A DNA stretch of 53,311 nucleotides from an uncultured bacterium (GTDB lineage Bacteria; Zixibacteria; MSB-5A5; JAABVY01; JAHJOQ01). Positions 151 to 48,070 of the stretch are shown here, piece after piece. The notes under the pieces were generated by a model, which had not been told where the DNA came from, did not search any database, and worked only from the letters and a program-made list of their open reading frames with translations. A program made the position numbers and the translations under genes. The first letter of the stretch is position 1, and each line of letters starts with the position of its first letter. Location: NCBI GenBank assembly GCA_965369655.1, contig CBDUQR010000018.1, forward strand, positions 1 to 53,311, written 5' to 3'.

Positions 151-430
151 GCCGTCATTGCGAGCGACCGAAGGAAGCGTGGCAATCTTTTGCATACCAG
201 CCAGTTACCAGTGCGCGTCACCCCTGCGGAGGCCCTTCGCTGTGCTCAGGATATGACAGGGGTCCAGATAAATCCCTAGAGTTAGCAACATTGCGCGTTC
301 TGAGTCTGGTTCTGGATTCCCGTGATATCCTGAGCACAGCGAAGGGCCTCCGCAGGGGTGACGAATGCAGTACGCATGCAGGAGCAAAAACTGAGATCAC
401 CACGTCGCTGTCGCTCCTCGTGATGACGAC
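151..430. repeat. Inverted REP doublet (GTCATTGCGAG...GTGGCAATCT family) with a nested insert
   Basis: Arms 151-188 and ~387-430 match, in reverse orientation, the two arms of the doublet at 12751-12842. Confidence 0.75.
216..363. repeat. 53-bp-arm inverted repeat; both arms carry the 24-nt CCTTCG...CTCAGGA module
   Basis: 216-268 is nearly the exact reverse complement of 311-363. Confidence 0.9.
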
Positions 431-494
431 AATACAGACCCGCGCCCAAATGGGTTTTCAACAAGCTTCATAGCGCAGGTTTGAGGGGAGACTG

Positions 495-1322
495 TTGGAG
501 AAATTCAACTTCATCATAGGTTCGTACCTTGGGACCATCAAGGCAATGTTTTCTCCGAGGCTCTGGTTTCCGTTTTTCCTGTTCGCTCTGATATCGCTCG
601 GCATCGCGTGGCTCCTGATCAATCCGTTCATGCCGGTACTCGGTCCGGCGATCTCGAGCGTGTCGAAGATGATAACCGGAACGGATGCGACCGCGCACTA
701 TCCGAGCATCTATGTCTTTCTTCCAATGACATACGGCTGGGTGACGCTGGTTGCGTCGGTGTTGATTGAGGCTCTGCTGATAGCCACAGGCTTCCTGCTG
801 TTCTCCGGGCATTACAAGCATGAAAGAGTCGGAATCGGTGCCGCTTTCAGTGGTGCTTCCGGGAAGTATTTGCAGGTCGTCACGGTCTGGCTTTTTTATA
901 CACTGGTATTTCTTGCGATGACTCACTTCCTGCCCAAGTTGTTCGATTCGCTCATTGGCGGGTCGCCTCGTCGCACGCTCGCGTTCCATATTCTGCTTCG
1001 ATTCGTCGGTGCAGGAATACTGGCGATGTTCATGTTTGTGGTTCCGTATGTCGTGCTCGACTCGCTGAAGTTCAAGACGGCTGTAGCCAGATCAATTCGA
1101 ACTTTCTTCAGGAATCCCGTATCTTCGTATATTCTGGCACTTGTGCCGTTTCTTCTGGTCCTCCCGTTTACTTTGGCGCTGTTTGATCCGTTGACAATAG
1201 TAAGAAAGTTCTCGCCTGAACTCATATTCTATCTTATTTCAGGACAGATCGTCGTCTCAATGATCGCAAACTTCGTGTTTACCTCCACTGTACTGCGGTT
1301 TCACCTGGAATACGCTGAATAG
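495..1322 (+). CDS. Hypothetical polytopic membrane protein
   Basis: 275 aa with about 6 hydrophobic segments; GAGGGGAG RBS before a TTG start; ends 8 nt before prsK. Confidence 0.75.
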   Translation: MEKFNFIIGSYLGTIKAMFSPRLWFPFFLFALISLGIAWLLINPFMPVLGPAISSVSKMITGTDATAHYPSIYVFLPMTYGWVTLVASVLIEALLIATGFLLFSGHYKHERVGIGAAFSGASGKYLQVVTVWLFYTLVFLAMTHFLPKLFDSLIGGSPRRTLAFHILLRFVGAGILAMFMFVVPYVVLDSLKFKTAVARSIRTFFRNPVSSYILALVPFLLVLPFTLALFDPLTIVRKFSPELIFYLISGQIVVSMIANFVFTSTVLRFHLEYAE

Positions 1323-1330
1323 ACTGCACC

Positions 1331-6388: not shown

Positions 6389-6483
6389 TACCGCTCAGAC
6401 CAGCTTGCCGGAAGCTGTCATTGCGAGCAACCTTCGGCGGACGCAAGAACAGCCGGAACGGATGCTTTTGGGGCAGATGTGGA

Positions 6484-6682
6484 GAGGTTGTCCCATAAGG
6501 TTTGACAGGTTGGTGTTCATGCTTGCGAAAGAAAGCGAGGTCATTCCCGCGCAGTCCCTTCGCTGTGCTCAGGATATCACGGGAATCTATTGAATGCGTA
6601 ATCGTTAAATAGGCTCCCGCCTCCGCGGGAGCGACAGAGTCAGCTTCCCGCTCAAGTTCATTGGCACTTATGGGACAACCTC
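6484..6682. mobile_element. 199-bp MITE, copy 1
   Basis: Perfect 16-bp TIR GAGGTTGTCCCATAAG...CTTATGGGACAACCTC; non-coding; similar copies at 28624 and 35781. Confidence 0.85.
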
Positions 6683-6847
6683 AGGACGTCTGCCGCCCAC
6701 AAGTCTTAAGGCTGTCTCACTTCGGCAAAAGTCCATCCATCAAATCGCAATCTCCGACAGGGGAGAGGCATGATCTGCTTCAACGACAAGCGCGGAGAAA
6801 ACTGATGTTTCCTCCGCGACTTGACGAGCAGTGTGGAAAGAGGGGAA

Positions 6848-8479: not shown

Positions 8480-8497
8480 AGAACACCTCACCATTTG

Positions 8498-28623: not shown

Positions 28624-28822
28624 GAGGCTGTCCCAAAAGGTCTAAAAGGTTGGTGGTCACGTTTGCGAAGGAAAGCGAGGTCATTCCCGCGCAGGCGGGA
28701 ATCTATTGAATGCGTTGATGTTAAATAGACTCCCGTGGTATCCTGAGCAAAGCGAAGGGCCTTCGCGGGAGTGACAGAGTCAGCTTCCCACATGAGCTAC
28801 TCAGCACTTTTGAGACAACTTC
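28624..28822. mobile_element. 199-bp MITE, copy 2
   Basis: TIR GAGGCTGTCCCAAAAG...CTTTTGAGACAACTTC; interior homologous to copies 1 and 3. Confidence 0.85.
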
Positions 28823-28930
28823 TGGACACGAGTCCTGAGCTTCGTCGGTCGCCGATCCCGATCCCCGAGGGAAAGGATCTGCCGGGCACAACCTGAAATC
28901 GACACCGGCAGTTCCAGCGTTTCGACAAGC

Positions 28931-28959: not shown

Positions 28960-28991
28960 GCCTTGAAAATGTTGACCGACGGAGTGCAGGA

Positions 28992-29600: not shown

Positions 29601-29604
29601 CTCT

Positions 29605-32351: not shown

Positions 32352-32380
32352 GATTGTAGGTTATTGAACTGAAGAACAAA

Positions 32381-32454: not shown

Positions 32455-32474
32455 AATGGAAATTCCGTGCAAAG

Positions 32475-32502
32475 ATTATAGAAACTCTGCCGCGAATGTC
32501 AA
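32475..32502 (-). promoter_or_regulatory. Sigma-70 promoter of tRNA-Ile
   Basis: TTGACA-16 nt-TATAAT. Confidence 0.8.
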
Positions 32503-32546
32503 CCGATTTTTCAGCGGCTTCACAGACGCGAATCTGCTTTATGTCA

Positions 32547-33137: not shown

Positions 33138-33220
33138 CTGTGCTATCTCCCTGGCAAAAGAATGAGTATTTCTATCAGACCGCAACGTAAGCACCATAGT
33201 AGTGTAAACACAAGCAAAAT

Positions 33221-35074: not shown

Positions 35075-35130
35075 ATATAGAATGTATCGTCACAATCGAA
35101 CGATCCAAAAGCCAAAAAGTTTTTCGAGAT

Positions 35131-35757: not shown

Positions 35758-35780
35758 TCTCCGTGGGCGGCAGACGTTCA

Positions 35781-35979
35781 GAGGTTGTCCCAAAATATCC
35801 GAAAAGCAGGTAATCATGTTTGCGAAAGAAAATAGCGTCATTCCCGCGCAGGCGGGAATCTATTGAATGCGTTGATGTTAAATAGGCTCCCGTGGTATCC
35901 TGAGCAAAGCGAAGGGCCTTCGCGGGAGAGACAGAGTCAGCTTACCGCTTGAGTTAATCAGGACTTTCGGGACAGCCTC
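35781..35979. mobile_element. 199-bp MITE, copy 3
   Basis: TIR GAGGTTGTCCCAAAA...TTTCGGGACAGCCTC; interior homologous to copies 1 and 2. Confidence 0.85.
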
Positions 35980-36073
35980 TCCACGCATGTCCTGAGCTTC
36001 GAAGGGTCTGCCCCAAGGCAACTGCGTTACGTTAGAATCTTGACTGTTATCCCTGAGTTCATATCTTCTCAGC

Positions 36074-36592
36074 ATGCAACGAATCCTGATAATCGGCACT
36101 CCCGGTGCGGGCAAGTCGACTCTGGCAATCGAGATGGGAAACCTGCTGAACCTGCCCGTTATACATCTCGATCAGGAGTTCTGGCAGCCCGGCTTGGTGA
36201 AACCTGAGTTATCAGACTGGCGACCAAAAGTCGAACAACTTGTTGCACGTGACAGATGGATCATCAATGGTAATTACGATTCATCAATGGACATCAGGCT
36301 TCCGAGAGCCGATACCGTGATCTGGCTCGACTTTGGCATCCCGACTTGCATGTGGAGAATCGCCAGGAGAGTCATGCGATTTAGGGGTCGAGTTCGTCCG
36401 GACATGGCCGATGGTTGTCCGGAATCGATCGATCCGACTTTCATCCGGTTCGTGTTGTCATTCAGACGGAAAATCAGACCGAGAATTGTCTCACAAATCG
36501 ATCAGATTTTCGCAGGAGGCAATCTGATAATTCTGAAATGCCCTACGGATGTTGATCGTTATCTTAGCAATCTGAAAGAAGAATACATGTGA
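36074..36592 (+). CDS. FlaR/topology modulation protein (adenylate kinase-like)
   Basis: GTPGAGKSTLA, IHLD..FW.PG, WIINGNY, RPDMADGCPE. Confidence 0.85.
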   Translation: MQRILIIGTPGAGKSTLAIEMGNLLNLPVIHLDQEFWQPGLVKPELSDWRPKVEQLVARDRWIINGNYDSSMDIRLPRADTVIWLDFGIPTCMWRIARRVMRFRGRVRPDMADGCPESIDPTFIRFVLSFRRKIRPRIVSQIDQIFAGGNLIILKCPTDVDRYLSNLKEEYM

Positions 36593-36634
36593 GATGGAAC
36601 TCGCACGTTTGTCCCGCAGGCATTCCGAAGAACA

Positions 36635-36688
36635 GATGTCATGCCCCCCTTCGTCAAACTCAGGACTATGCGAGTGGGCATGACCTAC
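36635..36688 (-). repeat. GTAG-type REP with a 24-nt insert
   Basis: Equals the 42397-42426 hairpin plus CCTTCGTCAAACTCAGGACTATGC at 36648-36671. Confidence 0.8.
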
Positions 36689-36693
36689 GACTG

Positions 36694-37317
36694 TTACTCT
36701 TGCGATACTTTGGGACGGTGTTCGAAATGCAAGCCGAACTCAAAAATCAAACCGTTTGAAAAGGGAAAATAGTCAGAGCTGCTTTCTGCAATGTAATTGT
36801 AACGTATACCTCCGTGTAGAGCAATATGATCAAAAAGCCTGAAAATCACTCCTAATCCGGGTTGAAAACAAAGTTCAAGGTCGTATTGTGTTATAATACT
36901 CTCAAAATGTGACCTGACTGAGAATCCGCAACCGAGGCTGGAAACAAATGAAATCCGGTCGTATTTCAAGAATCTCCACTGGATGTCTGTGAGGAAGCAT
37001 GAAAGTGTGTATCCAGTATGATCCATTATCGATGAATTGGCAGATTTGTATTCTGAGTGTACCCGGAAGAATCGTATTCCAGGGCGAATCTTTCTATCTG
37101 TCTTCAGAAACGAGCTAAGATAGATTTCAACACTAATCGAACGTTCTTGTGTTAGATAACGGGGTGACGAGCACTCAGGAGCAGCAATTTCGTCCTGGCG
37201 ATATTCTCCGATACCAAATCCGAAAGATTGTGCATGCACCAACGAATTTGGAGATAGGAATATCACAACAAATACAGCGGCGAATCCAAGGTGTTGCAAT
37301 AACCCCTGTCCTTTCAT
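36694..37317 (-). CDS. Hypothetical secreted/outer-membrane beta-barrel-like protein
   Basis: Signal peptide; alternating aromatic/Gly strands. Confidence 0.55.
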   Translation of the reverse strand: MKGQGLLQHLGFAAVFVVIFLSPNSLVHAQSFGFGIGEYRQDEIAAPECSSPRYLTQERSISVEIYLSSFLKTDRKIRPGIRFFRVHSEYKSANSSIMDHTGYTLSCFLTDIQWRFLKYDRISFVSSLGCGFSVRSHFESIITQYDLELCFQPGLGVIFRLFDHIALHGGIRYNYIAESSSDYFPFSNGLIFEFGLHFEHRPKVSQE

Positions 37318-38387
37318 TCCTTCTTTTCCTCTTCCCTCTTCTTGATTATCTCCGCAAGTCTCTCTCTTCGTTCTTTGAGGCGTGATCTTTCAGATTTGAG
37401 CGCGTCGCGGTCTTTGTCAAGCACAGCGTTATCTATCTGCTCTTTCAGCGCATCGATCTTCTCGCCCATCTCATCGTACATCTCTCTGAGTCTCTCAATC
37501 GACTCGGCTTTCTCGGCTTTGTCGAAGACGACATCCTCTGGCGCTGATGTATATGAAGGCTCTTCGGCTTTCGTTGTCCTGTCAGTCACTGGCATAAACA
37601 CACGTCCCTTGTCGAGTGCGCGCGTATTCATAAATGTCGGCGAAACAATCTCGACACCGCCCTCATGCAGCGAATCGAGCATCATCTGACGCAGCTTCGA
37701 CCGCGCCGATATGATCTGCTTGACCTCGGTCAGGAGACCCGCCACACGATATGTCACGGAGAAATCTCCCAGATCGACAACCTGCACGAACGGCTCCCGA
37801 AGCTCAGCCATTCCCGCAGCTTCGAGCAGCAATTCCTCGATTCTCCGACGCGGCACACCATAGCCGAGCGAGACTGTAGCAGTGATAATCGTCCCGGATG
37901 ACCGCGATACCGATACGGGATGGGTCACGAGATAAAGATTCGGCAGCGTTGTCAGATCGCGATCCTCGGTCTGAATCTCGACATGGAACAGGCCGCGATC
38001 CGAGACACGCCCGAAATGCTCACCGACCTCGATAAAATCGCCTGCACGGAAATTCCGTATCGCGCGAAGCATCATCCCAGCCATCAGATTGCCGAGCAGC
38101 GTTGTCGATGACAGCGCAATCGCGGCAGATAACAGTATTCCAAGAAGGCTCAGCAATTGACCGCGCGATGTCTCAGAAATCGGAAGCAGAAGGATGATAA
38201 CGAACAGTGCAATCAGAGTCAGAATCATGGTCGCAATCTGACGCCTGAATCGGAATTCGAGCTTCCCCTTGAAACGCCGGTTGAGAATCAGTTGCACGGC
38301 ATAGAGCACGACCAGCACGACGACCAGCCCAGCCACATTCGGCAGACTGGGAAGCACCCAGTTATATATATTTTCGAGGATTTGCAT
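37314..38387 (-). CDS. MscS family mechanosensitive channel
   Basis: Three TMs, GNLMAGMML, FRAGDFIEVG, TLPN. Confidence 0.88.
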   Translation of the reverse strand: MQILENIYNWVLPSLPNVAGLVVVLVVLYAVQLILNRRFKGKLEFRFRRQIATMILTLIALFVIILLLPISETSRGQLLSLLGILLSAAIALSSTTLLGNLMAGMMLRAIRNFRAGDFIEVGEHFGRVSDRGLFHVEIQTEDRDLTTLPNLYLVTHPVSVSRSSGTIITATVSLGYGVPRRRIEELLLEAAGMAELREPFVQVVDLGDFSVTYRVAGLLTEVKQIISARSKLRQMMLDSLHEGGVEIVSPTFMNTRALDKGRVFMPVTDRTTKAEEPSYTSAPEDVVFDKAEKAESIERLREMYDEMGEKIDALKEQIDNAVLDKDRDALKSERSRLKERRERLAEIIKKREEEKKE

Positions 38388-38502
38388 TTGTAATTTTCCC
38401 GTGTTTCACACGAAACTAATCAATCGCATGAACACGGTCAATATAAAGAGTTGCTTAGAATAGGTCCGGCAGTAACGAGCACACAATCCCGCTTCAATAG
38501 AG

Positions 38503-38535
38503 TGAAACCGCAGAAGCACAGCCTCTGCGGTCTCA
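38503..38535 (-). terminator. Probable intrinsic terminator hairpin
   Basis: ACCGCAGA...TCTGCGGT stem just downstream of the gene ending at 38563. Confidence 0.5.
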
Positions 38536-38562
38536 AATGACATCAAACAATTTCAGCCAAAG

Positions 38563-41100
38563 CTAACAGTCCGGCGTCCCGTCACCGTCAGGGTCGCACG
38601 GTGCGTTGCCGCCGGCGAAGATATACTGTATCAAGTACACCACATCATCGATATCAACATAACCGGAACAGTCGGCGTCACCTGCTTCAAGTGGTTGAGG
38701 TGCAGGGCCACCGGCGAAGATATACTGGATCAGGTAAACAACATCATCGATGTCTACATCACCGCTTGCGTCAGCGTCTCCGCAAATATACAGAACATGC
38801 ACATCGATCGAATAATCCTCAACTTCCCCGTTCTCCGTATTGCCACACGGTGGCGGATATGTCTCATAGTTCACGCGCACTCTCATTCTGGTCATGCCAG
38901 AGGCAGCGCCTGTCGGTGGGACTACGTTTCCAGTATATGGACCCTCACCGGTGAAGACATCGAGGTCAACCTCTTCATCCATCTCGAATACAAAGTTCTG
39001 GTTCCAGTCTACCCAAACCACACCAATATCATAGGTGTAACCGTTAGCGATCTCAATGGTGATCGGGTAGCTCTGCCCTGTTTCCATGACAGTAGACAGG
39101 CTTGTATAATCACCGTAGTTGTCGCATTCAGTGACGTTGTCAATGTCGCCTACGGCGACACGGGCAATGTATTTGTTGCCGTCGCAGTCACCATCAGCGG
39201 CACAGTATACTGCGATTGCTTCTCCGACAACATGAAGAGTATATGGTCCCTCTGCGCCATCATCGAGCAAGACCGGGTAGTAGTATGTCCCCGGATCGAG
39301 ATAGTCCCAGGTGATAGTCAGGTTACCATCCCCACAGTCCTCAGTGTTGTATTCACCTGACGCGGTGCTGCTTATGCATGGGCAGCCAATGGCAAGATTC
39401 AGCCAGGCATTGGAGAAGGCCGGTTCGGTGGTGCAGTAGTCAAGAGTAACGATCATGGTAGTATCAAGTGTGAAAGCATGCCATGTGTGGCCGCCATCAA
39501 AGAGATCGCACTGATGCGATGCGTATGTATTGTCACCCTCAAACATAACAGGTACGCCATCACTAAGCGTAACGGGTGTAACATACTCACAATCGTCATT
39601 CTCAAGGCACCTGACATTCAGAATCCCATCGCCGGTATTCTTGTTCCAGCCACCGACTCCTATCAGGTACGTGTTGCCTTCCACAATGCTGACGTTGAGT
39701 TGAGATTGCTGAGAGAACTCGCCGCAAGCATCAGAGGCATCGTTACAGCCAAGTATCGGATCATAGAAAGGATTAACGCCGTCGTACACAGCCAGTTTTG
39801 TGTTGTAACTTGAACCACACAAACTGAATACACCCGTGCCGGTGCAGGTAGCAGTGTAGCAGTACCACAATGTCGGGGAGATCAGGCAGCCGCCCGGGCC
39901 ATCGGGAGTAGCCTGTTTTGTGGAAAAAGCAAGATCAACAACATCGTCAATCGGCATGCAGGTTTCCCAGGCGTCATTCTCCATACGATCATCTACGGAC
40001 CGGATAGTCAAAGTAAACGACGGGATGCAGGTCGGAGATGGCCAGGTGTCAACCATAACGTAGTAGGTCCCCGGATCAAGTGAGACATTGTAAAGACCGT
40101 GAGCGCCTTCGCCAATGGTTGAGAACTGGATACAGCCAGTCTCATCGGGCGGGCAGTTGTCGTCAATCAGGATACCGGTCCAGTTTGTCGAACCCGGATC
40201 CATAAATATGTCCACAGTGACTGGCTCGACAACATCAAGCTGATAGATTATATCCTCCCCGCCGTCATAGTTGTATTCTTCCTCGAGACAAGTGTTATCA
40301 TAGTTATTGCCCCTGCTACATGTGTAGCTCTCATGAATATACGAATCATTGTTCGGTCCGCCGGTCATGTCGTTCGGCAGCTTGACCTCGACAGGGTCAC
40401 CGCAGCTATCCCCGGGATATTCTATGAAGAGTTCGAGGGTCAGGTCAAAATCGGGAATACAGTCGGGGGGCGGCCATGTGTCGACCATGATGTAGTACGT
40501 GCCTGCAGCCAGATCGACATTTACCATGCCGTGTGGAACTCCACTTTCTCTGACACTCTTGGCAATGCACGTACTCGGATTAGGCGGACAGGAATCATCA
40601 ATCAGTATCCCCGTATAGATCGTGCCATTGGGATCAAATAGAATACTCAGATGGAGACTCTCGGATAGATTCAACTGGTAAATGATGTCCTCACCGCCAT
40701 CAAAGCCACCCAGGCAGGTGTTGTCATAGCTATTGCCTCGCTCACAGGTCGTCTGCCCGTAATCGTAGTACGGCAGATCGGCTGCTCCTATATTGAGAAC
40801 AATCGGGTCAGTGCAATCATCGCCGACTGCGCGCTGTTCTTCCGGCAGCGATGGAACATATTCAGTTGTTGAAGCCTTCCTGGACTCGACTTCTTCCAAT
40901 CTGGCGGCTTCTTCCAGCTTGTCGGCAACTTTCTCATCGAAGCTTTGATCCGTTGCTCGATTCTGATCGGGCAGCACACCCAATGATACCGGCTTGACGC
41001 TGGAAGAGGTATTTTCGATACCTTCTCCAACAACCACCAATGTAAACACTGACATCAGCATTCCGACCAGAAAGATGGCTACAGTTGCTCTGGTTTTCAC
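38563..41100 (-). CDS. Large secreted Cys/Asp-rich repeat protein with GEVED and dockerin-like domains
   Basis: Signal peptide; duplicated DGGEDIIYQL/GTYYxMVDTW modules; WVDWNQN...GEVEDY; GDADASGDVDIDDVVYLIQYIF and a near-identical second copy. Confidence 0.85.
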   Translation of the reverse strand: MKTRATVAIFLVGMLMSVFTLVVVGEGIENTSSSVKPVSLGVLPDQNRATDQSFDEKVADKLEEAARLEEVESRKASTTEYVPSLPEEQRAVGDDCTDPIVLNIGAADLPYYDYGQTTCERGNSYDNTCLGGFDGGEDIIYQLNLSESLHLSILFDPNGTIYTGILIDDSCPPNPSTCIAKSVRESGVPHGMVNVDLAAGTYYIMVDTWPPPDCIPDFDLTLELFIEYPGDSCGDPVEVKLPNDMTGGPNNDSYIHESYTCSRGNNYDNTCLEEEYNYDGGEDIIYQLDVVEPVTVDIFMDPGSTNWTGILIDDNCPPDETGCIQFSTIGEGAHGLYNVSLDPGTYYVMVDTWPSPTCIPSFTLTIRSVDDRMENDAWETCMPIDDVVDLAFSTKQATPDGPGGCLISPTLWYCYTATCTGTGVFSLCGSSYNTKLAVYDGVNPFYDPILGCNDASDACGEFSQQSQLNVSIVEGNTYLIGVGGWNKNTGDGILNVRCLENDDCEYVTPVTLSDGVPVMFEGDNTYASHQCDLFDGGHTWHAFTLDTTMIVTLDYCTTEPAFSNAWLNLAIGCPCISSTASGEYNTEDCGDGNLTITWDYLDPGTYYYPVLLDDGAEGPYTLHVVGEAIAVYCAADGDCDGNKYIARVAVGDIDNVTECDNYGDYTSLSTVMETGQSYPITIEIANGYTYDIGVVWVDWNQNFVFEMDEEVDLDVFTGEGPYTGNVVPPTGAASGMTRMRVRVNYETYPPPCGNTENGEVEDYSIDVHVLYICGDADASGDVDIDDVVYLIQYIFAGGPAPQPLEAGDADCSGYVDIDDVVYLIQYIFAGGNAPCDPDGDGTPDC

Positions 41101-41410
41101 GACGTACCTCCTCAGTACAAACTGCTCACGTGAAGCAACAGCTTGTTGTTAACAATTATTACCACGACATGTACTATCCTGAAGAGTGACAATACTCAAC
41201 AGAATCTGTAAGCTGCAACATATACGACGTCATCCATTTTGTCAAGCGAATTCTTGCCACAAGACAGGAAATTCATGTATCTGTTGTCGACATCTGTGGA
41301 CACAAAATGAGGGGCGAAGGGTGCTACATGCGCTTGTCAGGTTCGAGAGTTGTTTTCTTTTTCAGTGCTAGGCTTTTTTCATCCAACTTTGAGCAGTTGA
41401 ATGGTCAATA

Positions 41411-42373
41411 TCACTCTTCGCCAATTGTAGGACTAATAGGATTCTTGAACATTTCAGGAACATCAATCAATGCACTCATCCGTCTAAACTTATCGCGTAT
41501 CTCACTGATGTACCATGCTGTAAACTGCTCTTTCTCTCCGCAGCGAAACCTCAGTATCATTAGCTCGTTCGCACGAAGGAGAAATTCAGCAGCGAACTGG
41601 GCACAACACTCTTCACTCTCAGGATTTCTCAGTAAGGGACCTTCTCGGGTGCCCGCCACCAATGTCAATAAACTCGATGCATCATGAGCATGGCAAATGC
41701 CAGCCCAACGCCGATACAGGATCTCGTACTGCGCACCTCTATCAAGTCGTTCTGCTAGCTGATCAATACTGGATATCTTCTTGTCGCCCGTATCACAGAG
41801 ACGACACCAAAATTTCTTCCCGACTAGTTTATTCCATTTTTCCTCGAATTCAACGAACTCCGGTCGCTTCAGAAGATTTCTCAGCGGCTTCGACTTCGAA
41901 TCAGAGTCAATCAAGAACTTCTCAGGGATTGATTTTATCCACTTGTCCTTCTGAACCTTCCTTTTGAGCGTCTTTCCTTTGTCAGTGGACGGGTCAAAGG
42001 TTTCGTAAAGGTCAATACGTCTATGGGCATAGGAGGTCAGCCACGCCAGCGACCTAGATCTGTAATCATCTTGACAAACATATTCCAAGGACAAAAGAGC
42101 CTCGAACGCGCTTCTGACAAGTGGAACCGCTGGCACATCGCAGACTTCCCTGGTGAGAACTTCGACTCCATCGCTCATTTCGATTATGTGAAGGAAAAGC
42201 ACAAGTGGTGTGAGATCGACATTCTCCTCATCGCCACAAGATGCTGCGCATCTTGCAAATAGTGCAGTTGAGTAATCTACTAATGTTCTTATTACAGATG
42301 CGTCATTGTCAATCCGATCCTTTGCTAAGACCCTTGATGTCTCTCTATCCAGTATTCCGGGCAATGCACCCAT
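41411..42373 (-). CDS. DUF5677-like protein
   Basis: PLVRSAFEA...LEY and late Y..W....H pattern; GGAG RBS. Confidence 0.55.
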   Translation of the reverse strand: MGALPGILDRETSRVLAKDRIDNDASVIRTLVDYSTALFARCAASCGDEENVDLTPLVLFLHIIEMSDGVEVLTREVCDVPAVPLVRSAFEALLSLEYVCQDDYRSRSLAWLTSYAHRRIDLYETFDPSTDKGKTLKRKVQKDKWIKSIPEKFLIDSDSKSKPLRNLLKRPEFVEFEEKWNKLVGKKFWCRLCDTGDKKISSIDQLAERLDRGAQYEILYRRWAGICHAHDASSLLTLVAGTREGPLLRNPESEECCAQFAAEFLLRANELMILRFRCGEKEQFTAWYISEIRDKFRRMSALIDVPEMFKNPISPTIGEE

Positions 42374-42396
42374 ATCACTTCTCCGATGATTACAGA

Positions 42397-42426
42397 GATG
42401 TCACGCCCCGAGTGGGCATGACCTAC
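42397..42426 (-). repeat. GTAG-type REP (empty form)
   Basis: GATGTCACGCCCCGAGTGGGCATGACCTAC hairpin. Confidence 0.8.
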
Positions 42427-42443
42427 AACTACAACTTACTAAC

Positions 42444-44150
42444 CTACGATCGATCAAATTCTCCCAGCAATTCATCCGCTTGTTTCAGCGAGGTCTCTGT
42501 CAGCTTGTCGCCGGAGAGCATGCGGCCGATTTCGTCGCGGCGCTCGTCGTCGGAAAGCTTGCGTATTTTGGTCACCATGCGACCGTCTGATTTTTCTTTG
42601 TAGATACAGAAATGATGTTCGCCCGCCGCCGCGATCTGCTGCAAATGCGTGATGACAATGACTTGATGTTTCTTCGACAACTCCCGTAACTTGCGGCCAA
42701 CTGCCGAGGCGACCTCGCCCCCGATCCCCGAATCGACTTCATCGAAAACCAGCGTTTCGAGTTTTTTCCTCGCAGCGCCGACACTCTTGAGCGCGAGCAT
42801 CACTCGCGATAACTCGCCGCCCGAAGCGATCTTCGCCAGCGGTCGAAGCTCCTCTCCCCTGTTCGCGCAGAAATAGAACTCGACGTCATCGATGCCGTCG
42901 CGCTCGACGCGGTACCGGCGATTGTCCAGTTCGATCAACCCTGATTCATCCCCGCGTCTGGTCAACCGCACCTCAAGCTGCCCTTTCGGAATGCCGAGTC
43001 GACCCAGTTCTTTCTCGACCCGCCTGGACAATTTTGCGGCATTCTCTTCCCGTTTTTGTGACAGACGTATGGCGGCTTCCGACAATTCCGTCTCAATACT
43101 GCAAAGCTCACTCTGCTGTTTTAGAATCTGCTCCGACAGGTCTTTGTTCGATTCGAGTTCAGCCTTCGCTTTCGCGTAGTAGTCGTTGAGCGCCTGAATC
43201 GATCCGCCGTATTTTTTCTTCAAATTGTAGTAGACATCGAGCCGCGACTCGATCTCCTGCAATCGCGCCGGATCAGCCTGCACGCTTTCGGCTCTCGATG
43301 CAAGCGTTCGCCCAATATCCTCCAGCACATATCTCGAACCGGCCATGCTTTCAAGTGATGCTTTAAGACTGGGATCGATCTCGACAATGTCCTGAATCGT
43401 CGCCTCCAGTTGAGACAGCCGGACTGAGATACCGTCGTCAGAAATCGAGAGACCATCGGCGACAAATCCGAGAGCGGTTCTCAATCTGTCCGCATTTTCG
43501 AGGACTCGTTTTTCAGCATTCAGTGCATCTTCTTCTTCAATCGACAATTCAGCCTGTTCTATCTCACGCACCTGGAATCTGTACAGCTCCGCCATCTCGC
43601 TGTTACGTTGTGCATTAGCATGCAATATCTCAAGTGTACGTTTAGCATCATATCTCCGGTCGAACAGGTCGGAGACTTCGGCGCTGAGCGGTATCAGACC
43701 GGCAAAACTGTCGAGGAATTCAATATGATGATCGACCGTGATCAGGTATTGTTGCTGGTGTTGCCCGACAAGATCGAACATGGCGGCACCGATCTCCTTA
43801 AGGCTCGACAGCGGGACCATCCTGCCATTGACCAGCGCGCGCGACAATCCTCTCGCCTGGACCTCGCGTCTGAGCATGAGCGTATCGCTGTTCGTGTCTA
43901 TCTCCAGGCGTCGGAGAATATCCAGCGCAGCATCAGGAGCATCGCATATCTCGGCTTCGACAACCGCGATGTCTTCTCCCACACGAACCATCTCTGTTGA
44001 TGCGCGCTCTCCGAGGATCAGATTCAGAGCACCGACCAGAATCGATTTGCCTGCGCCGGTCTCGCCGCTCAGGATCGTAAGTCCGGCGTCGAACTCAACT
44101 GACAGATCGCGTACGATCGCGTAGTTCCTGACTGATAGTTTTCGAAGCAT
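42444..44150 (-). CDS. recN: DNA repair protein RecN
   Basis: SGETGAGKS, coiled coil, ASGGELSRVML, FDEVDSG, ITHLQQIAA. Confidence 0.97.
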   Translation of the reverse strand: MLRKLSVRNYAIVRDLSVEFDAGLTILSGETGAGKSILVGALNLILGERASTEMVRVGEDIAVVEAEICDAPDAALDILRRLEIDTNSDTLMLRREVQARGLSRALVNGRMVPLSSLKEIGAAMFDLVGQHQQQYLITVDHHIEFLDSFAGLIPLSAEVSDLFDRRYDAKRTLEILHANAQRNSEMAELYRFQVREIEQAELSIEEEDALNAEKRVLENADRLRTALGFVADGLSISDDGISVRLSQLEATIQDIVEIDPSLKASLESMAGSRYVLEDIGRTLASRAESVQADPARLQEIESRLDVYYNLKKKYGGSIQALNDYYAKAKAELESNKDLSEQILKQQSELCSIETELSEAAIRLSQKREENAAKLSRRVEKELGRLGIPKGQLEVRLTRRGDESGLIELDNRRYRVERDGIDDVEFYFCANRGEELRPLAKIASGGELSRVMLALKSVGAARKKLETLVFDEVDSGIGGEVASAVGRKLRELSKKHQVIVITHLQQIAAAGEHHFCIYKEKSDGRMVTKIRKLSDDERRDEIGRMLSGDKLTETSLKQADELLGEFDRS

Positions 44151-44193
44151 CAATGTTTAATATAACCAGAACCGTCTCGTGCCGGAAGAGAAT

Positions 44194-44697
44194 TCAATGG
44201 CGGCGTTTCAGTTCAATCGATGACACAAACCTGAAGACAAACATTCCGAGTCCACTCCCGGCACAGCATCCTGCGATGAACCGGAGCAGATTGCCGGATT
44301 CGTAGACGCCGAACTGCTGACAGACGATATCGATCAACCCCAGCGCACCGGTGATAAGAAAAGCGCGTTCTACCACCCGACCCGGATCAGCGTCGGCTCT
44401 GAAGACGTAAGACGAAGAATAGAATCCAAGGTATGCGCCCACGCATCTTGAACAGAGCGCGAATGGCGCACAGCCGAAATAGAAGCAGCGATCCGGCATC
44501 TGATGACAGGTCAGTCCGAGAGCATCATAGAGAAATCCTGCGGGCTTCGACAAGCCAAGCAGCCACATGACAGGCGCAATCAATGAGAGCAGCACCAGAA
44601 GGCCGGCGGCGCCGCTCAGGATTGTGCGGAGATTATCAGAAACAAAGCGACCGACAATGTCGGCCGCTTTGGAAATATCTGCGGGTATTTGTCCCAT
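44194..44697 (-). CDS. DUF2085 membrane protein
   Basis: CHQMPDRC...CSRCVGAY motif. Confidence 0.8.
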   Translation of the reverse strand: MGQIPADISKAADIVGRFVSDNLRTILSGAAGLLVLLSLIAPVMWLLGLSKPAGFLYDALGLTCHQMPDRCFYFGCAPFALCSRCVGAYLGFYSSSYVFRADADPGRVVERAFLITGALGLIDIVCQQFGVYESGNLLRFIAGCCAGSGLGMFVFRFVSSIELKRRH

Positions 44698-44719
44698 CGG
44701 TCGCAATCGCGATCAGCGC

Positions 44720-45322
44720 CTAACCCACGTTTGCGGCCTCTTTTTTCTTCATCGCCTCCTGATATATCTTGCCGTACAGGAAGCTGACTCCGAGATTCGC
44801 ATAGAATGCTGTGAACAGGTATCCGATAAGAAGCGCTATGATACCGAGCGAAGAGATGATGGAAAATATAATCGACATCACCAGCACGCCAGCCAGGCCT
44901 GCCATGTTTTCGCGAGTCAGTTCCATGATCTCATTGAAATTGAAGACCTTGTTCAAATCTCCCGTCACAGCGTATTTACCATACAGGATCGGAAGAACGA
45001 GCATCGCGAAAAGGAAATAGAAGATCGATAACACCTGGATGCATGGTATGAACGAAAGAATGATACCGGGGATAAAAGCAACCAGCGCAATGATAAATGC
45101 AACCAGTCCTTTCGTGAACAGTTCACCCCAGTTATCCCACTCCGGCAACTGCGCTTCCTGATCCTCATATGATCGCTTAATGACCAGCATCATGTATCCG
45201 AGCACGAACGGAATGCCAATCAGGAAAAACGAAAGCAAAACGAACGCTGCGCCGATCAGAATCTTGGGCAGCCAGTTCTTGTCCTCAAACATAAATGTAA
45301 ATGATCTTGCGAGATCGGGCAT
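44720..45322 (-). CDS. DUF4013 membrane protein
   Basis: KILIGA...LGY...LPEWDNWGELF.KG. Confidence 0.8.
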   Translation of the reverse strand: MPDLARSFTFMFEDKNWLPKILIGAAFVLLSFFLIGIPFVLGYMMLVIKRSYEDQEAQLPEWDNWGELFTKGLVAFIIALVAFIPGIILSFIPCIQVLSIFYFLFAMLVLPILYGKYAVTGDLNKVFNFNEIMELTRENMAGLAGVLVMSIIFSIISSLGIIALLIGYLFTAFYANLGVSFLYGKIYQEAMKKKEAANVG

Positions 45323-45414
45323 ATAACCTCCCTGTAAAGACAACCGTTAAGTCGATACCCACTTCGCATCGTACTTAAACCATAGCTTATCACATGTCAA
45401 CAAAAACAGAGCGC

Positions 45415-46419
45415 TCACTCGAACGCATCCGGATCAAAATCGACTTCATACAGACTTGGGAGCTTGCCGTGGTAACCGGCGACCACAAGATACAGCTTCG
45501 AGCCGTCTCCGTTCCAGATCACTGAGCCGCAGCTCTTGCCCTCTGGAAGATCAATTATCCTCACTGTCTTCCTGTCAGAGATCCGAACGACCCAGGGGTC
45601 CCAGTGCAGGCCATCCTTGAGTCTCAGGAATGCCACGTATTTTCCGTCGGGCGATGGCGTAGCCCAGCTTTCACTCAATTGCGTAGCGACGAGAGTCGAG
45701 ACCTTGTTGGTCTTAGAATCCATCAGGAAGAGATCCTCACTGAATTTACCAGAGATCGAATCAGAAGCAGCGAACACCAGTGTTTCCGAATCAGGGAACC
45801 ACTTAGGCAGGTAACCATACTTGCTCGCCGTCATCTTGCGATAGCGATTGCGATCGATCTCATAGAGCCAGATAGCAGTCTCGCCAAGAATCCCGAAAGT
45901 CATAGCGATCTTGTTCCCGTCCGGCGAGATATCCATCTGCTTGACTTGGAGCACATCACTCGGTTTCATGCCGAGCTGATACATCTGGTCGGCGGAATAA
46001 CCAGGGTCAAACTGTTCCAGTTCTGTCAGACGGACCGGTTCGCCGTAAGGGTTGTCAACATCATGCAGCCAGATATCGCAGAAGGTGAGGATTTTGTCGA
46101 CCAGCGCCACATGCTTGCCGTCCGGCATGAACGCAAACGCCTGCACCTTGTCGCGATTGAAATCGATGTCCGGAAACAGCGTAGTCTCCTTGCCGGTCTT
46201 CGGATCGCCCAGCGTGAGACGACTGTATGATGTGTTATTGGCTTCGATGTACTTGAAGAACGCTACCTGATCGAGCGAATCTACATACTCGGGGAAATAG
46301 AGATCTGTAAAGAGCAATTTCCCGGGCGCTTCGTCCTGAGCAACCGCAGACATCGGAAAGCAGAAAGCTATCACGGTCACAACAAACAACACAGTGCGGA
46401 GTGCTTGCATTTTCATCAT
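45415..46419 (-). CDS. Secreted TolB-like/PD40 beta-propeller protein
   Basis: Signal peptide; repeated SPDG/MPDG/WFPD motifs. Confidence 0.75.
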   Translation of the reverse strand: MMKMQALRTVLFVVTVIAFCFPMSAVAQDEAPGKLLFTDLYFPEYVDSLDQVAFFKYIEANNTSYSRLTLGDPKTGKETTLFPDIDFNRDKVQAFAFMPDGKHVALVDKILTFCDIWLHDVDNPYGEPVRLTELEQFDPGYSADQMYQLGMKPSDVLQVKQMDISPDGNKIAMTFGILGETAIWLYEIDRNRYRKMTASKYGYLPKWFPDSETLVFAASDSISGKFSEDLFLMDSKTNKVSTLVATQLSESWATPSPDGKYVAFLRLKDGLHWDPWVVRISDRKTVRIIDLPEGKSCGSVIWNGDGSKLYLVVAGYHGKLPSLYEVDFDPDAFE

Positions 46420-46600
46420 GTCATAATCTCCTTTGGTTCTGTCGAATTTATCGGCAGATAATACACCAAATCCAACCAAATGGCTATATCAATCTTACAG
46501 TGAATGCTGCGCGGAGTTCAGGAAATTCGTCCCGAAATATTGCGTGGCCTCTTATCATGCTCAGAATGAGTGGTACACTCTTAACGCTTCAACTAATCCC

Positions 46601-46628
46601 TTGACACCGCCAATGCTCCTGATATATT
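46601..46628 (+). promoter_or_regulatory. Sigma-70 promoter of tRNA-Ala
   Basis: TTGACA-16 nt-TATATT. Confidence 0.7.
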
Positions 46629-46644
46629 GCCGTGTCTATGGCGT

Positions 46645-46720
46645 GGGGCCGTAGTTCAGCTGGGAGAACGCTTGACTGGCAGTCAAGAGGTCAGGGGTTC
46701 GAGCCCCCTCGGCTCCACCA
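46645..46720 (+). tRNA. tRNA-Ala(GGC)
   Basis: GGGGCCGTAGTTCAGCTGGGAGAACGCTTGACT-GGC-AGTCAAGAGG...CTCCACCA; G3:U70 pair. Confidence 0.97.
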
Positions 46721-46728
46721 GAAAATAT

Positions 46729-46762
46729 GAAGCCTGCAGATTCTCATCCGCAGGCTTGTTTC
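46729..46762. terminator. Terminator hairpin after tRNA-Ala
   Basis: AAGCCTGC...GCAGGCTT followed by GTTT. Confidence 0.6.
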
Positions 46763-46840
46763 ATATCAGTTTGTACATCTCCGCAAAACGTGTCAACAAA
46801 TATTGTTCTGTCAGTCTGGAGCGGGAATCAGCAGAGAGAA

Positions 46841-47674
46841 TCAGACTTTCAGGTGAGTGAAAAACTCCTCGGACGAACTGAGCACGGAATCGAACGCCTC
46901 GCACGTGCCTTCAAACGGATGCACAATCCCGAATGTGTGGCCCGTCTTTGGAATCATACGAAGTTCGGTGCGAGACTTGTCAGACCAGTCGAATAGCTGC
47001 TGAGCTTCTGATGGCGGAACGGAAATATCCTGTTCTCCGTGGACAATAAGCAGCGGTCGATTCAATTCTCTGGCTGCACTTTCGAGATTCAGCTTGTCAT
47101 GCTTATGTTCGTCTATATCATTGAGCAGAGTAGCATTGAGCCGCATCACCTGTTTTGTCCGCTGGTTCATCACTTTGAAGTAACCGCGATTTTTCCATTC
47201 ACGTCTGAGTTTGTCGGAATACCTGTCAAAACTGGCTATCGACGACCAGATTGCGACAGCGGCGACATCCGGTTTCTTATGCGCGGTCGCCAGCGCAATC
47301 CCGCCGCCGCGACTGTGTCCGAGAACTCCGATTCTCTGACCGCCGATGTCACCGAAGAAGCCATTATTGACCGCGTCGATGATTTCGGAGAGTTCTCTGA
47401 CTTCGCGCGAGAATGTATTGCGTGCAAACTTGTCGAGTTCGTCGAATTCTGTAAGGCTCTCCCCTACTCCGTTGTGGGAGAAATTGAATGTGAGAACCAC
47501 GAATCCTCTGTCGGCAAAGTATTCACCGATGTATGGCCAGAATCCCCAGTCCTTGAATCCCTTGAAACCGTGGACGAAAACGACAATCGGACCTGTTCCG
47601 AGATTGTCCTCGCCAAAAAGTGTAGTCCGAATTTTCTCTCCGTCGCTCGCAGTAAAGACAATATCTCGTTTCAT
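46841..47674 (-). CDS. Alpha/beta hydrolase
   Basis: HGFKGFKDWG, GHSRGG nucleophile elbow, HGEQD, GHTF. Confidence 0.92.
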   Translation of the reverse strand: MKRDIVFTASDGEKIRTTLFGEDNLGTGPIVVFVHGFKGFKDWGFWPYIGEYFADRGFVVLTFNFSHNGVGESLTEFDELDKFARNTFSREVRELSEIIDAVNNGFFGDIGGQRIGVLGHSRGGGIALATAHKKPDVAAVAIWSSIASFDRYSDKLRREWKNRGYFKVMNQRTKQVMRLNATLLNDIDEHKHDKLNLESAARELNRPLLIVHGEQDISVPPSEAQQLFDWSDKSRTELRMIPKTGHTFGIVHPFEGTCEAFDSVLSSSEEFFTHLKV

Positions 47675-47970
47675 AGTGACGCGAATATGCTCTGGCTTGT
47701 CAGTGAAGTCAATAGATTAGACCAACGTTTGCAGTATTCTCCGGCAGGTCATCGGTCGCTGATCCCGTCATTGACCCCGATCTTCGAGGGGATCCTGAGG
47801 GACACGCTTTCGGCGCAAGATCAGCCGGAGCAGTCGCAAGACCGTCACTGCGAGCGAAGCGTGGCAGTAGTAGGGAAGAATCCGAAATGGTTCTGTCATG
47901 AACAGAAGATGGCGGGACTCGCTTCGGGTCGCTGCTCTACTCGAAGACAATTCTCATGTCCCGAACTCTT

Positions 47971-48070
47971 GTAGCTCACGTCCGCTTGGGACGTGAGAAT
48001 AAAAGCACGCTATTGAGATGTCACGCCCCCCTTCGCCAAACTCAGGACTGAGCAAGCGGGCATGACCTAC
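47971..48070. repeat. Inverted pair of GTAG-type REPs; the right one carries a 24-nt insert
   Basis: GTAGCTCACGTCC...GGACGTGAG (47971-47997) facing GATGTCACGCCCC[insert 48030-48053]...TGACCTAC. Confidence 0.75.

Follow-up and report, generated by a model that had tools for sequence, protein, structure and literature searches.

A 21-24 nt module nested at the stem/loop junction of different hairpin repeats in a Zixibacteria genome

The DNA analysed here (the window, 53,311 nucleotides in its whole length) raises the question of how one very short unit came to lie inside hairpins that belong to different repeat families. A preliminary description of the window took the unit for an ultra-short mobile element aimed at hairpins, possibly moved by an HUH enzyme, and for the best candidate there for an undescribed system. 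The question bears on a wider one, the origin and spread of REP-type hairpin repeats, above all of the CGTC/NTS class. According to a 2013 survey, CGTC repeats apparently have no dedicated transposase (PMC3733652), and the Ssn nuclease, the sole known partner of CGTC/NTS repeats, was described in 2025 (PMC11893778) and is not known to mobilise them. The genome that contains the window offers about 200 nucleotide-resolution junctions, together with empty counterparts, arrays, chimeras and a sister genome that is nearly free of the module. The nested module was confirmed as a real observation: the unit is added as a discrete 21-24 nt piece at the stem/loop junctions of resident hairpin repeats from at least 10 families.

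The module and its copies

In the window, CCTTCG-N5-CTCAGGA matches seven times against an expectation of 0.01, and none of 100 shuffles reached seven. The seven sites given in the preliminary description were all found, although the blocks, which it had called exact, are not identical and carry three variants of the N5 spacer, CTGTG, CTTTG and TCAAA/CCAAA (Table 1). The shorter variants that it had noticed near 28828-28876 and 35985-36006 proved to be modules with an N3 spacer, one of them an intact 21 nt and the other split by a second nesting module of 28 nt that is also present in the genome. The genome scan that it had proposed, run with a spacer of N3-6, returned 207 strict copies, against none in the reversed-genome control.

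Genome-wide, the module is 21-24 nt long and its boundaries are near-constant, with both halves of the motif strongly conserved and the spacer variable. Its two ends, CCTTCG... and ...CTCAGGAC-NNNGC, do not form an inverted pair, and the junctions show no clear duplication of the target: flanking repeats there measure 0-2 nt. The base immediately 5' of the module is C in 180 of the 207 copies and T in the remaining 27. The leader ends in GTC or ATA immediately 5' of CCTGAG and lacks the full CGTC-AT tag; no stand-alone CGTC-tagged copy was found in the genome, every copy being nested. Positions are mainly intergenic. Tandem arrays reach up to four units, and five chimeric hairpins are joined at the module.

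The core (16-18 nt, followed by a tail of 4-8 nt) can be drawn on the TCCTGAG-loop-CGAAGG(A) strand as a short stem in which two of the pairs are G.A mismatches. By nearest-neighbour energies the isolated core has hardly any stability (means of -0.27 and -0.49 kcal/mol for the two strands), and in the full elements the host stem alone is robust. The drawing of a mini-hairpin leans mainly on the closing pair of the N5 spacer, present in 99 of 120 copies and 20 of 29 distinct spacer types, the copies not being independent of one another.

Table 1. Module copies and empty hairpins in the window; the strict match is the span of CCTTCG-N5-CTCAGGA
Feature	Position	Strand	Strict match	Host or context
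Module, N5 variant CTGTG	234..257	+	234-251	CGTC-type hairpin GTCACCCCTG...CAGGGGTC (217-268)
Module, variant CTGTG	322..345	-	328-345	Inverted partner hairpin (311-363) of the 217-268 hairpin
Module, variant CTGTG	6557..6580	+	6557-6574	Left NTS-like hairpin (6540-6587) of MITE copy 1 (6471-6704); state Fe
Empty partner hairpin GCTCCCGCCTCCGCGGGAGC-GAC	6613..6635	+		MITE copy 1 (6471-6704)
Empty NTS-like hairpin GTCATTCCCGCGCAGGCGGGAATC	28680..28703	+		MITE copy 2; state eF
Module, variant CTTTG	28735..28758	-	28741-28758	Right hairpin (28728-28775) of MITE copy 2
N3-type module beside GGCAGAT arm	28828..28876	-		Split CCTT/CG by the second, 28-nt module (28845-28872)
Empty NTS-like hairpin	35837..35860	+		MITE copy 3
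Module, variant CTTTG	35892..35915	-	35898-35915	MITE copy 3; exactly the stretch absent from MITE copies of the same-genus genome G001
Intact 21-nt N3-type module	35985..36005	-		Between GGGGCAGAC arm and MITE end
Module, variant TCAAA	36648..36671	+	36648-36665	GTAG-type REP GTCATGCCC...GGGCATGAC-CTAC (36637-36692)
Empty REP GTCACGCCCCGAGTGGGCATGACCTAC	42400..42426	+		Same family as the 36637-36692 REP
Module, variant CCAAA	48030..48053	+	48030-48047	GTAG-type REP (48019-48074)

Host hairpins and their empty counterparts

The hosts are GTAG-tagged REPs, CGTC-tagged NTS/SRM-like hairpins and the target palindrome of a MITE. Three families occur in the window (a CGTC-tagged ATTCCCG/ACCCCTG type, a GTAG-tagged GTCAYGCCC type and the GGCAGAC palindrome), in agreement with the earlier count of at least two. 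Among 196 module clusters, 145 have both flanks from one and the same host family, with 10 families represented. The empty sites reported for the window are real (Table 1), and every host family has empty copies, so that the module is not confined to one fixed larger repeat lacking empty alleles. After the palindromic counts were halved, empty and filled copies number about 63 and 42 in family A, about 75 and 33 in B, about 22 and 15 in C, 29 and 4 in G, and 31 and 2 in H. Family A is the MITE target palindrome, G and H are long CGTC hairpins, and C to F are imperfect palindromes with a CTAC tail. Family B is NTS-like and fits the NTS consensus CGTCATTCCCGCGMAVGCGGGAATC given in the main text of the Ssn paper (PMC11893778).

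The junction is constant within these families: the module lies immediately 3' of the 5' arm in A, C, D, E and F, and immediately 5' of the 3' arm in B. Its orientation is fixed with respect to the tag, the CTAC tail lying on the same side in all 36 scorable GTAG-type hosts. In B-type hosts the tag is on the expected side in 39 of 39, a count in which the search pattern itself required GTC on the left; no B-type host in the opposite orientation was seen among the copies listed.

The GGCAGAC palindrome is the target of both the MITE and the module. In 41 MITE doublets the module is found on the left (11 plus 1) or on the right (16), and never in both hairpins at once. The window also holds a doublet of CGTC-type hairpins (217-268 and 311-363) in which both are filled, the 53-nt arms being 92% complementary. 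At the position that matches the module at 35985-36005, MITE copy 1 is empty. An empty/filled pair of paralogous MITE copies, C40:10202 against C32:6082, differs at five of about 170 compared positions and by one 24-nt indel. The filled state is scattered over the MITE tree, which is poorly resolved (about 40 copies, 22 of 40 inner branches open): eF takes 13 changes where shuffling gives 13.2 on average, and no fewer than four are imposed by well-supported branches; gene conversion among the roughly 40 copies can be a source of this scatter. Next to the A arm, CTCAGGAC is found again as the outer terminus of the MITE inverted repeat (window 6680-6687).

A genome of the same genus, G001, has a single copy of the motif, against 203 in this genome. 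It carries the same MITE and has REPs of the same types as empty copies; exactly query positions 139-161 are missing from at least 10 of its MITE copies. Coding identity between the two genomes is 72-83% and synteny is broken, so these comparisons are paralogous only; at the orthologous place in G001 no counterpart of the MITE at 35768 was found. Farther away, the motif was detected in 99 of 151 Zixibacteria genomes, and filled A, D and I hosts occur in other genera of the same family. Polymorphism was sought in the contigs of three runs from one study, which break at MITE copies. These runs were the only ones found with the stretch, and no RNA data set was listed among them. The module at 36648, the sole unique site bridged, is present with no gaps in three contigs (X1, X2 and X3), and across the contigs of the three samples, which cannot reveal rare variants, no indel of about 24 nt is listed for positions 28101-48100. 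A metagenome scan for empty and filled alleles of the 36648 site with unique flanks gave no matches. Taken together, the junctions, the empty counterparts and the sister genome yield an explicit insertion rule: at the stem/loop junction, in fixed orientation and with no duplication.

Explanations for the nested state

The best explanation is a tentative one, to which we give a probability of roughly 0.45: a tiny hairpin-type repeat unit would have been inserted, rarely and by an enzyme, into folded single-stranded DNA and would then have spread passively with its hosts. New insertions would be rare, and most of the approximately 200 copies would come from the continued multiplication of filled REPs, REP doublets and the MITE. 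Module variants are mostly specific to the host family, with the N3 variant typical of host A also present in G, H and E; because variants track their hosts in this way, most copies probably multiplied passively, with no need of mobility of their own, and independent insertions may be little above one per family. The earlier idea of an ultra-short mobile unit in hairpins survives in part: the discrete unit, its near-constant boundaries, the empty/filled pairs and the hosts almost free of the module in G001 stand, but own mobility is dispensable for most copies. Insertion may have been carried out on single-stranded folded DNA by a nuclease or transferase that recognises hairpins. One candidate is an enzyme of the Ssn-type GIY-YIG kind, which cuts a few nt 5' of its hairpin, in keeping with the 4-5 nt leader of the unit; a Y1/RAYT enzyme is the other. 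Shared modules could then act as recombination points and give rise to the chimeric hairpins and the tandem arrays.

Genes for both kinds of enzyme are present. Five Y1_Tnp matches (Y1/RAYT-like genes) were identified, with RAYT-like proteins on C31, C76, C37 and C9. The one on C31 is a RAYT by NCBIfam, its score of 98.1 bits with NF047646 (REP-associated tyrosine transposase) exceeding the cut-off of 80. There are also two small single-domain GIY-YIG (Ssn-like) genes, at C3:73062-73334 and C1:281335-281619, bracketed by B-type or G/H-type hairpins. The module itself brackets neither of the two Ssn-like loci, and at the flanks of the five Y1_Tnp loci, where the preliminary description had proposed to look for the motif, it is absent, other REPs and palindromes (GTAGCCCACCC... 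and others) lying there. The lack of an enzyme bracketed by the module at any of these loci counts against an explanation that is linked to an enzyme. The near-zero stability of the isolated core and the chance of gene conversion behind the scatter on the MITE tree weigh on the same side, as does, though it says little, the filled state of site 36648 in all three samples. A tandem module is located about 260 nt away from the Ssn-like gene on C1, which may be chance in a repeat-rich spacer. Among 37 module pairs 150-3500 nt apart, the enclosed ORFs look housekeeping-like by eye and no recurrent enzyme was found. One module pair encloses IS-like transposase fragments (C13:15344-16218). SsnA is, to our knowledge, not known to join DNA. 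Its cut in ssDNA falls a few nt upstream of the hairpin and outside it, according to the main text of its description (PMC11893778). Ssn-like homologues occur in 100 of the 151 Zixibacteria genomes searched, and in 2 of 29 loci of other Zixibacteria the Ssn-like genes are flanked by CTGAGC/GCGAAG-type hairpins with the stem ATTCTGAGC / ATGCTGAGC.

The most serious alternative, possible but in our judgement unlikely, dispenses with a dedicated enzyme: replication errors (template switching and snap-back at stalled hairpins) would copy the unit into hairpin tips, and gene conversion and host mobility would do the rest. The junction in host B, GCGAAGG-C-CCTTCGC, joins the host loop and the first bases of the module into a 7-nt inverted repeat. 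Such a repeat is the signature expected of snap-back copying, and it counts against the preferred explanation of rare enzymatic insertion. CCTTCG is already contained in the loops of empty B and G hairpins, CTCAGGAC recurs where the MITE inverted repeat ends on its outer side, slippage and copy choice typically yield arrays and chimeras, and the module has no associated enzyme gene. However, module and host share just 1-2 nt at the junction in families A, C, D, E and F, and where the loop of a B copy reads CGGAGG or CGCAGG, the palindromic junction is lost and CCTTCG is kept. The units within one array differ, position and orientation are uniform in unrelated hosts, and the motif is kept across the phylum, unlike a local by-product.

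The stronger reading of the unit as an active mobile element, an oligonucleotide of 21-24 nt excised or copied by an Ssn-type GIY-YIG or Y1 enzyme and joined into any folded hairpin at its stem/loop junction, is rather doubtful. If the unit did move itself, it would set a lower size limit for mobile DNA and would be the smallest known bacterial mobile element; CGTC/SRM repeats would spread by hairpin-into-hairpin transposition, and nucleases of the Ssn family would gain a mobilising role. The filled and empty hairpins constitute defined oligonucleotide substrates for Ssn-like and RAYT proteins.

It is improbable that an HUH Y1 transposase (RAYT or IS200-like), encoded at another place in the genome, is what specifically moves the unit as a non-autonomous element, a possibility that the preliminary description had raised. 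The five Y1_Tnp matches with their one RAYT, the absence of target duplication and the location in hairpins of an ssDNA type would agree with this, and chimeras would suit strand transfer. Against it, the RAYT genes are flanked by other REPs and never by the module, which has no GTAG tag and a single small hairpin at most, and among the 207 copies there is no conserved tetra- or pentanucleotide target of the IS200/IS605 kind, only the preceding C or T. A Y1 enzyme is no more plausible than an Ssn-type GIY-YIG nuclease or template switching during replication.

More improbable still is that the module is ancestral to a single hairpin superfamily with co-varied stems, the empty hairpins being deletion derivatives and no insertion having ever occurred. 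Families C, D, E and F do share GTC...GAC-CTAC and similar loops, variants are host-specific, orientation was uniform in the 36 hosts scored, and other genera of the taxonomic family already have filled hosts of types A, D and I. Yet hosts A, B, G and H are unrelated in sequence to C-F, and only 4 of 33 G copies and 2 of 33 H copies are filled, with the variant typical of host A. Flanking direct repeats of 1-2 nt are too short for frequent precise deletion, and the 41 MITE doublets are filled on the left or on the right, never on both sides. Finally, a selected functional site (protein-binding or an RNA element, such as a terminator cap or a regulator site) that hairpins acquired convergently is scarcely credible, since the conserved halves with variable spacer, the phylum-wide occurrence and the mostly intergenic positions are set against the lack of strand bias relative to co-directional neighbour genes (36 same, 45 opposite, by crude ORF calls), the lack of a match to the module among Rfam families at gathering thresholds in the window, where two tRNAs were the only hits, and the same-genus genome G001, which manages without the module.

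Comparison with known repeat systems

The closest relatives are the CGTC REP/NTS/SRM repeats with their Ssn partner, through host B, which meets the NTS consensus, and through the two GIY-YIG genes bracketed by such hairpins. The module core itself resembles the CTGAGC-loop-GCGAAG hairpins that flank Ssn-like genes in two other Zixibacteria. As defined in the main text of the 2013 survey, CGTC REPs/SRMs have a CGTC tag, an 8-9 bp stem starting with AT, a 4-5 nt loop and a short tail (PMC3733652). Host B agrees with this definition. The module differs in that it has no full CGTC-AT tag, never stands alone and is nested in other hairpins; its stem, as drawn, needs two G.A mismatches. A full-text literature search, its listings judged by title and the opening of the abstract, found nothing on units nested in REP loops or on Zixibacteria repeats of this kind. 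Neither Di Nocera et al. 2013 (PMC3733652) nor Chenal et al. 2025 (PMC11893778) describes loop-nested discrete units in the sections consulted, though their supplements may hold SRM variants that bear on the comparison; the former goes no further than loops of unusual length and REPs that have inserted into palindromes.

With the GTAG REP/REPIN-RAYT system the likeness lies in hosts C-F, palindromes with a CTAC tail, and in the RAYT-like genes flanked by REPs; filled GTAG hosts probably multiply by this route. The module is half the size of a REP, lacks the tag and flanks no RAYT. Insertion sequences that target REP hairpins, such as IS1397/ISKpn1, IS621 and ISPpu9, combine inverted ends with a transposase parent and, as a rule, a target duplication. 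Like the module, they and the MITE of this genome go into the loop or centre of a palindrome that is already in place. The module, ten to fifty times shorter, has no inverted ends, transposase parent or duplication. MITEs as derivatives of DDE transposons are marked by terminal inverted repeats and a target-site duplication, neither of which the module shows. IS200/IS605 elements bear a hairpin at each end and insert 3' of a fixed tetra- or pentanucleotide with no duplication. Absent duplication fits the module, whereas its one small hairpin at most and its one conserved preceding base do not correspond. The BIMEs of E. coli and the pneumococcal BOX elements, with their variable number of boxB, are mosaic repeats whose modules lie side by side. 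The modular combination of short units and the tandem repetition of one unit are common to them and to the module described here, which is placed instead inside the hairpin of another repeat, at a fixed junction. The module is not an undescribed kind of sequence, as had been proposed: its core resembles a CGTC/SRM-type hairpin.

Abundance and form of the module

The preliminary description took a 24-nt block, CCTTCG-N5-CTCAGGA-N5-C, for a repeated unit, and this holds: the window has seven copies of CCTTCG-N5-CTCAGGA, at the positions given there, against 0.01 expected, a number reached in 0 of 100 shuffles. The assembly that contains the window as contig C18 (2.99 Mb, 100 contigs, 51.8% G+C) has 207 copies of CCTTCG-N3-6-CTCAGGA, all related and so not counts of independent events, and the reversed, uncomplemented genome has none. 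Spacers of 5 nt are commonest (120 copies), followed by those of 3 nt (70), 4 nt (13) and 6 nt (four). The copies fall into 196 clusters (187 single, seven double and two triple), and arrays of up to four units, repeating every 21-23 nt, appear when up to two mismatches are allowed. Regarding the ends of the module, they are not inverted repeats of each other, the direct repeats flanking it are 0-2 nt long, mostly C or GC, and either C (180 copies) or T (27) stands directly before it.

On the strand TCCTGAG-loop-CGAAGG(A), the conserved halves of the motif could form the pairs C-G, C-G, T-A, G.A, A.G and G-C, with the spacer as loop. The end bases of the spacer are pairable in 99 of the 120 N5 copies, covering 20 of 29 distinct spacer types and including switches from C...G to T...A, and in 10 of 13 N4 copies. 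Because the isolated core is nearly without stability by energy rules, and the only robust stem in whole elements is that of the host, the drawing of a mini-hairpin is tentative.

Between co-directional genes the module lies 36 times on the gene strand and 45 times on the other; 37 copies lie between convergent and 18 between divergent genes, by crude gene calls that also place 42 copies inside open reading frames and 29 at contig edges. Rfam identified two tRNAs in the window and nothing else. The module is unlikely to act at the level of RNA. In the sediment runs, contig depth has peaks at the two tRNA genes and also at the MITE copies.

Locations of the features discussed (C-numbers are contigs of the same assembly)
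Feature	Location	Strand	Remark
Doublet of ACCCCTG type	window 216-268 and 311-363		module in both inverted hairpins, unlike the 41 MITE doublets
MITE inverted repeat, outer end	window 6680-6687 and 6471-6499		
Second nesting unit	window 28845-28872	-	full
Second nesting unit	window 13369-13387 and 47773-47791		partial
N3 module, intact, 21 nt	window 35985-36005		missed by N5 pattern
N3 module split by another 28-nt unit	window 28828-28876		missed by N5 pattern
tRNA gene	window 32381-32454	-	
tRNA gene	window 46645-46717	+	
Ssn-like genes (small, single GIY-YIG domain)	C3:73062-73334 and C1:281335-281619		two genes, outside window
Chimeras A/C	C33:12315 and C57:482		
Chimera A/H	C25:8720		
Chimera C/E	C62:6194		
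Chimera D/I	C5:81153		
Tandem duplication	C33:10899-12043		segment of ~1083 bp
Y1_Tnp domain within open frame	C23:18996-22232 (locus L001)		frame of 1073 aa

Host hairpins and junctions

The module sits in hairpins of several families, and for 145 of the 196 clusters the two flanks were assigned to one and the same family. Assignment relied on patterns made by hand, which left 46 clusters without a family on one or both sides. The hosts comprise GTAG-type REPs with the layout arm-loop-arm-CTAC (GTCAYGCCC, CTCACGTCC, GTCGAAACC, GTCAGGAGC, GTCAAGCGC), CGTC-type hairpins (ATTCCCG/ACCCCTG/ATTCCGG, and the long types GAGATTGCCACG...CGCAATGAC and GAGATCACCACG...CGTGATGAC), and a palindrome, GGGGCAGAC...GTCTGCCGCCCAC, which also surrounds a 234-nt MITE. 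The claim that sites without the module exist beside filled ones is borne out genome-wide: empty copies occur in every host family.

Host families of the module (empty/filled figures are approximate, with palindromic-arm counts halved)
Family	Type	Clusters	Empty/filled	Spacer and tail variants
A	palindrome	31	63/42	AAG/AGG/AGA with CTTGC
B	CGTC, NTS-like	34	75/33	CTGTG/CTTTG with TATCA
B2		13		
C	GTAG REP	23	22/15	TCAAA/CCAGA
C2			6/6	
D	GTAG REP	9	10/8	CAGG
E	GTAG REP	7	6/8	
F	GTAG REP	11	9/8	
G	long CGTC	5	29/4	
H	long CGTC	2	31/2	
I		10		

Comparison of empty and filled copies indicates that in hosts A, C, D, E and F the module follows the 5' arm with no gap, as in empty GTCAAGCGC-GAGC-GCGCTTGAC versus filled GTCAAGCGC-CCTTCGCAAGTCTCAGGACAGGC-GAGC-GCGCTTGAC, and that in host B the 3' arm directly follows it (...CGAAGG-24 nt-CGGGAAT). 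The CTAC tail lies on the same side of the module in all 36 GTAG-type hosts scored. The tag side is equally uniform in 39 of 39 B-type hosts matched by a pattern demanding GTC at the left, and inspection of the flanks by eye showed no B-type host of opposite orientation. In the A palindrome the two orientations occur 21 and three times, with 18 copies not assigned, and the CCTTCG end adjoins an arm every time; one A copy (C2:108672) carries one module per junction in mirror orientation. The unit is discrete, and its junction and orientation are fixed.

A second nesting unit, TCCCTCGGGGATCGGGATCRGCGACCGA, is about 28 nt long; the genome contains it 27 times and the reversed control not at all. 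It occurs in B3, G, H, I and other hosts, in host G at the same CCCTK/CGG point as the module, and twice inside the module itself, between CCTT and CG. CTCAGGAC is common to the module and to the MITE inverted repeat, at the outer end of the latter (...ACCTCAGGAC/GTCTGCC). Genome-wide, the "empty" A palindromes have 6-nt loops, GTGGAC and GAGGAC, that resemble the tips of the two MITE ends fused together, in the manner of an excision footprint or a minimal MITE.

Gain, loss and passage between hosts

Each MITE contains a pair of inverted NTS-like hairpins, a doublet of ATTCCCG/RCTCCCG type. The 41 such doublets in the genome include 13 empty ones; the module occupies the left hairpin in 11 and the right in 16, one combines the module at the left with the 28-nt unit at the right, and none has the module in both hairpins. 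Between a filled copy (C40:10202) and an empty one (C32:6082) there are five mismatches among ~170 positions compared and a single indel, 24 nt long. A tree of 43 doublets was built with the module columns left out; on it, right-hand filling needs 13 changes against a mean of 13.2 for shuffled labels and left-hand filling 10 against 10.1, so that filled states cluster no more than shuffled labels. Support for this tree is weak, as 22 of its 40 inner branches are open; the well-supported ones force at least four changes in each state. Gene conversion among MITE copies could produce the same scatter.

Spacer and tail variants follow host family, and most copies are probably passive. The A-type N3 variant also occurs in host G (four copies), host H (two) and host E (an array on C71): the module has been transferred between host families. 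Tandem arrays exist, as do chimeras, five hairpins that join the left arm of one family to the right arm of another with the module at the join. On contig C33 a segment with two open reading frames, by eye a peroxiredoxin-like pair, is duplicated in tandem, and both copies begin at an identical GGCAGAT hairpin with the module, which suggests a repeat-mediated duplication.

The module is nearly absent from the sister genome: the same-genus G001 (94% complete) has one motif copy, against 203 counted in the present genome, and possesses the MITE family as well as C- and E-type REPs that are empty. In at least ten of its MITE copies the alignment ends at query base 138 and restarts at 162 at the same subject base, and in five longer alignments the G001 side is 24-25 nt shorter. 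In other genera of the family the motif has 12-35 copies, and A, D and I hosts are found filled there, so the association of module and host is older than the present genome, which represents an expansion. Overall, the motif occurs in 99 of 151 genomes of the phylum sample, where the next highest count is 40.

Routes of insertion and relation to known repeats

We consider insertion by an enzyme, at a probability of roughly 0.45, the leading explanation. Rare insertions of the module would occur on folded single-stranded DNA, and the module would then hitch-hike with hosts multiplied by their own systems, RAYT for the GTAG REPs and possibly Ssn, a small GIY-YIG ssDNA nuclease, for the CGTC hairpins. 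An enzyme that recognises a small hairpin and cuts a few nt 5' of it would free units from tandem arrays with a leader of 4-5 nt. The observed 4-5 nt leader would follow from such a cut and fits the published activity of SsnA, which, according to PMC11893778, binds the NTS hairpin as ssDNA and cuts a few nt upstream. Against this, the module has no linked gene, and Ssn is not known to join DNA. Between 37 pairs of modules 150-3500 nt apart no recurrent gene was found.

Of this genome's two small Ssn-like genes, one lies between B-type hairpins; the other lies between hairpins of type G/H and has a tandem module ~260 nt from it. A search of 151 Zixibacteria genomes gave homologues in 100. Of 30 fetched loci, 29 were inspected, since in one the gene was not picked up by the pattern; most of the 29 have CGTC-type hairpins close to the gene on either side, by eye and untallied, and two (L106 and L108) have hairpins of CTGAGC-loop-GCGAAG type. 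Within ~330 nt of the gene, the exact module motif was found at none of the 29 except the locus of the present genome. These loci often show diverse inner hairpins nested within a conserved outer stem, ATTGCGAG...GCAAT.

The Y1 transposase proposed in the preliminary description is included in the figure for enzymes and is a doubtful, minor part of it. The genome has five Y1_Tnp matches, among them a C31 protein scoring 98.1 bits (cut-off 80) with the NCBIfam model of REP-associated tyrosine transposases, but the expected flanking modules were not found at these five loci, which have other palindromes instead (GTAGCCCACCC... and others). On C23 a RAYT-like Y1_Tnp domain lies in frame within a longer open frame, with one repeat-encoded peptide, GMGFQPMNHGxDGHATS, bordering it at either end, and the rest of the frame resembles a DNA methyltransferase or restriction enzyme; the locus looks like a RAYT plus its REPs inserted within a gene.

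The main rival, copying errors or template switching at hairpins, is less likely, though it has in its favour the inverted-repeat junction of host B and the presence of both motif halves among resident repeats: the loops of hosts B and G contain CCTTCG, and the MITE end (6680-6687) contains CTCAGGAC. That the module was ancestral and later deleted from the empty hosts is highly improbable.

Regarding known repeats, the hosts belong to the GTAG and CGTC/SRM superfamilies, of which they are ordinary representatives, and host B fits the NTS consensus CGTCATTCCCGCGMAVGCGGGAATC as given in PMC11893778. Tested for membership, the module itself did not qualify as a GTAG REP, as an IS200/IS605-type element or as a MITE. 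It may be a CGTC/SRM hairpin: in other Zixibacteria its motif is the core of CGTC-tagged hairpins (in genome G111, cccGTCATCCTGAGC...CGAAGGACggg inside GAGATTGCTTCG...CGCAATGAC hosts). The present genome has no tagged stand-alone copy. Our full-text search of the literature returned no description of discrete units nested in REP loops; Di Nocera et al. (PMC3733652, sections 6 and 7) mention just loops that are unusual and palindromes with REPs inserted into them. What is notable in the module is its small size, its many host families and its clean junctions.
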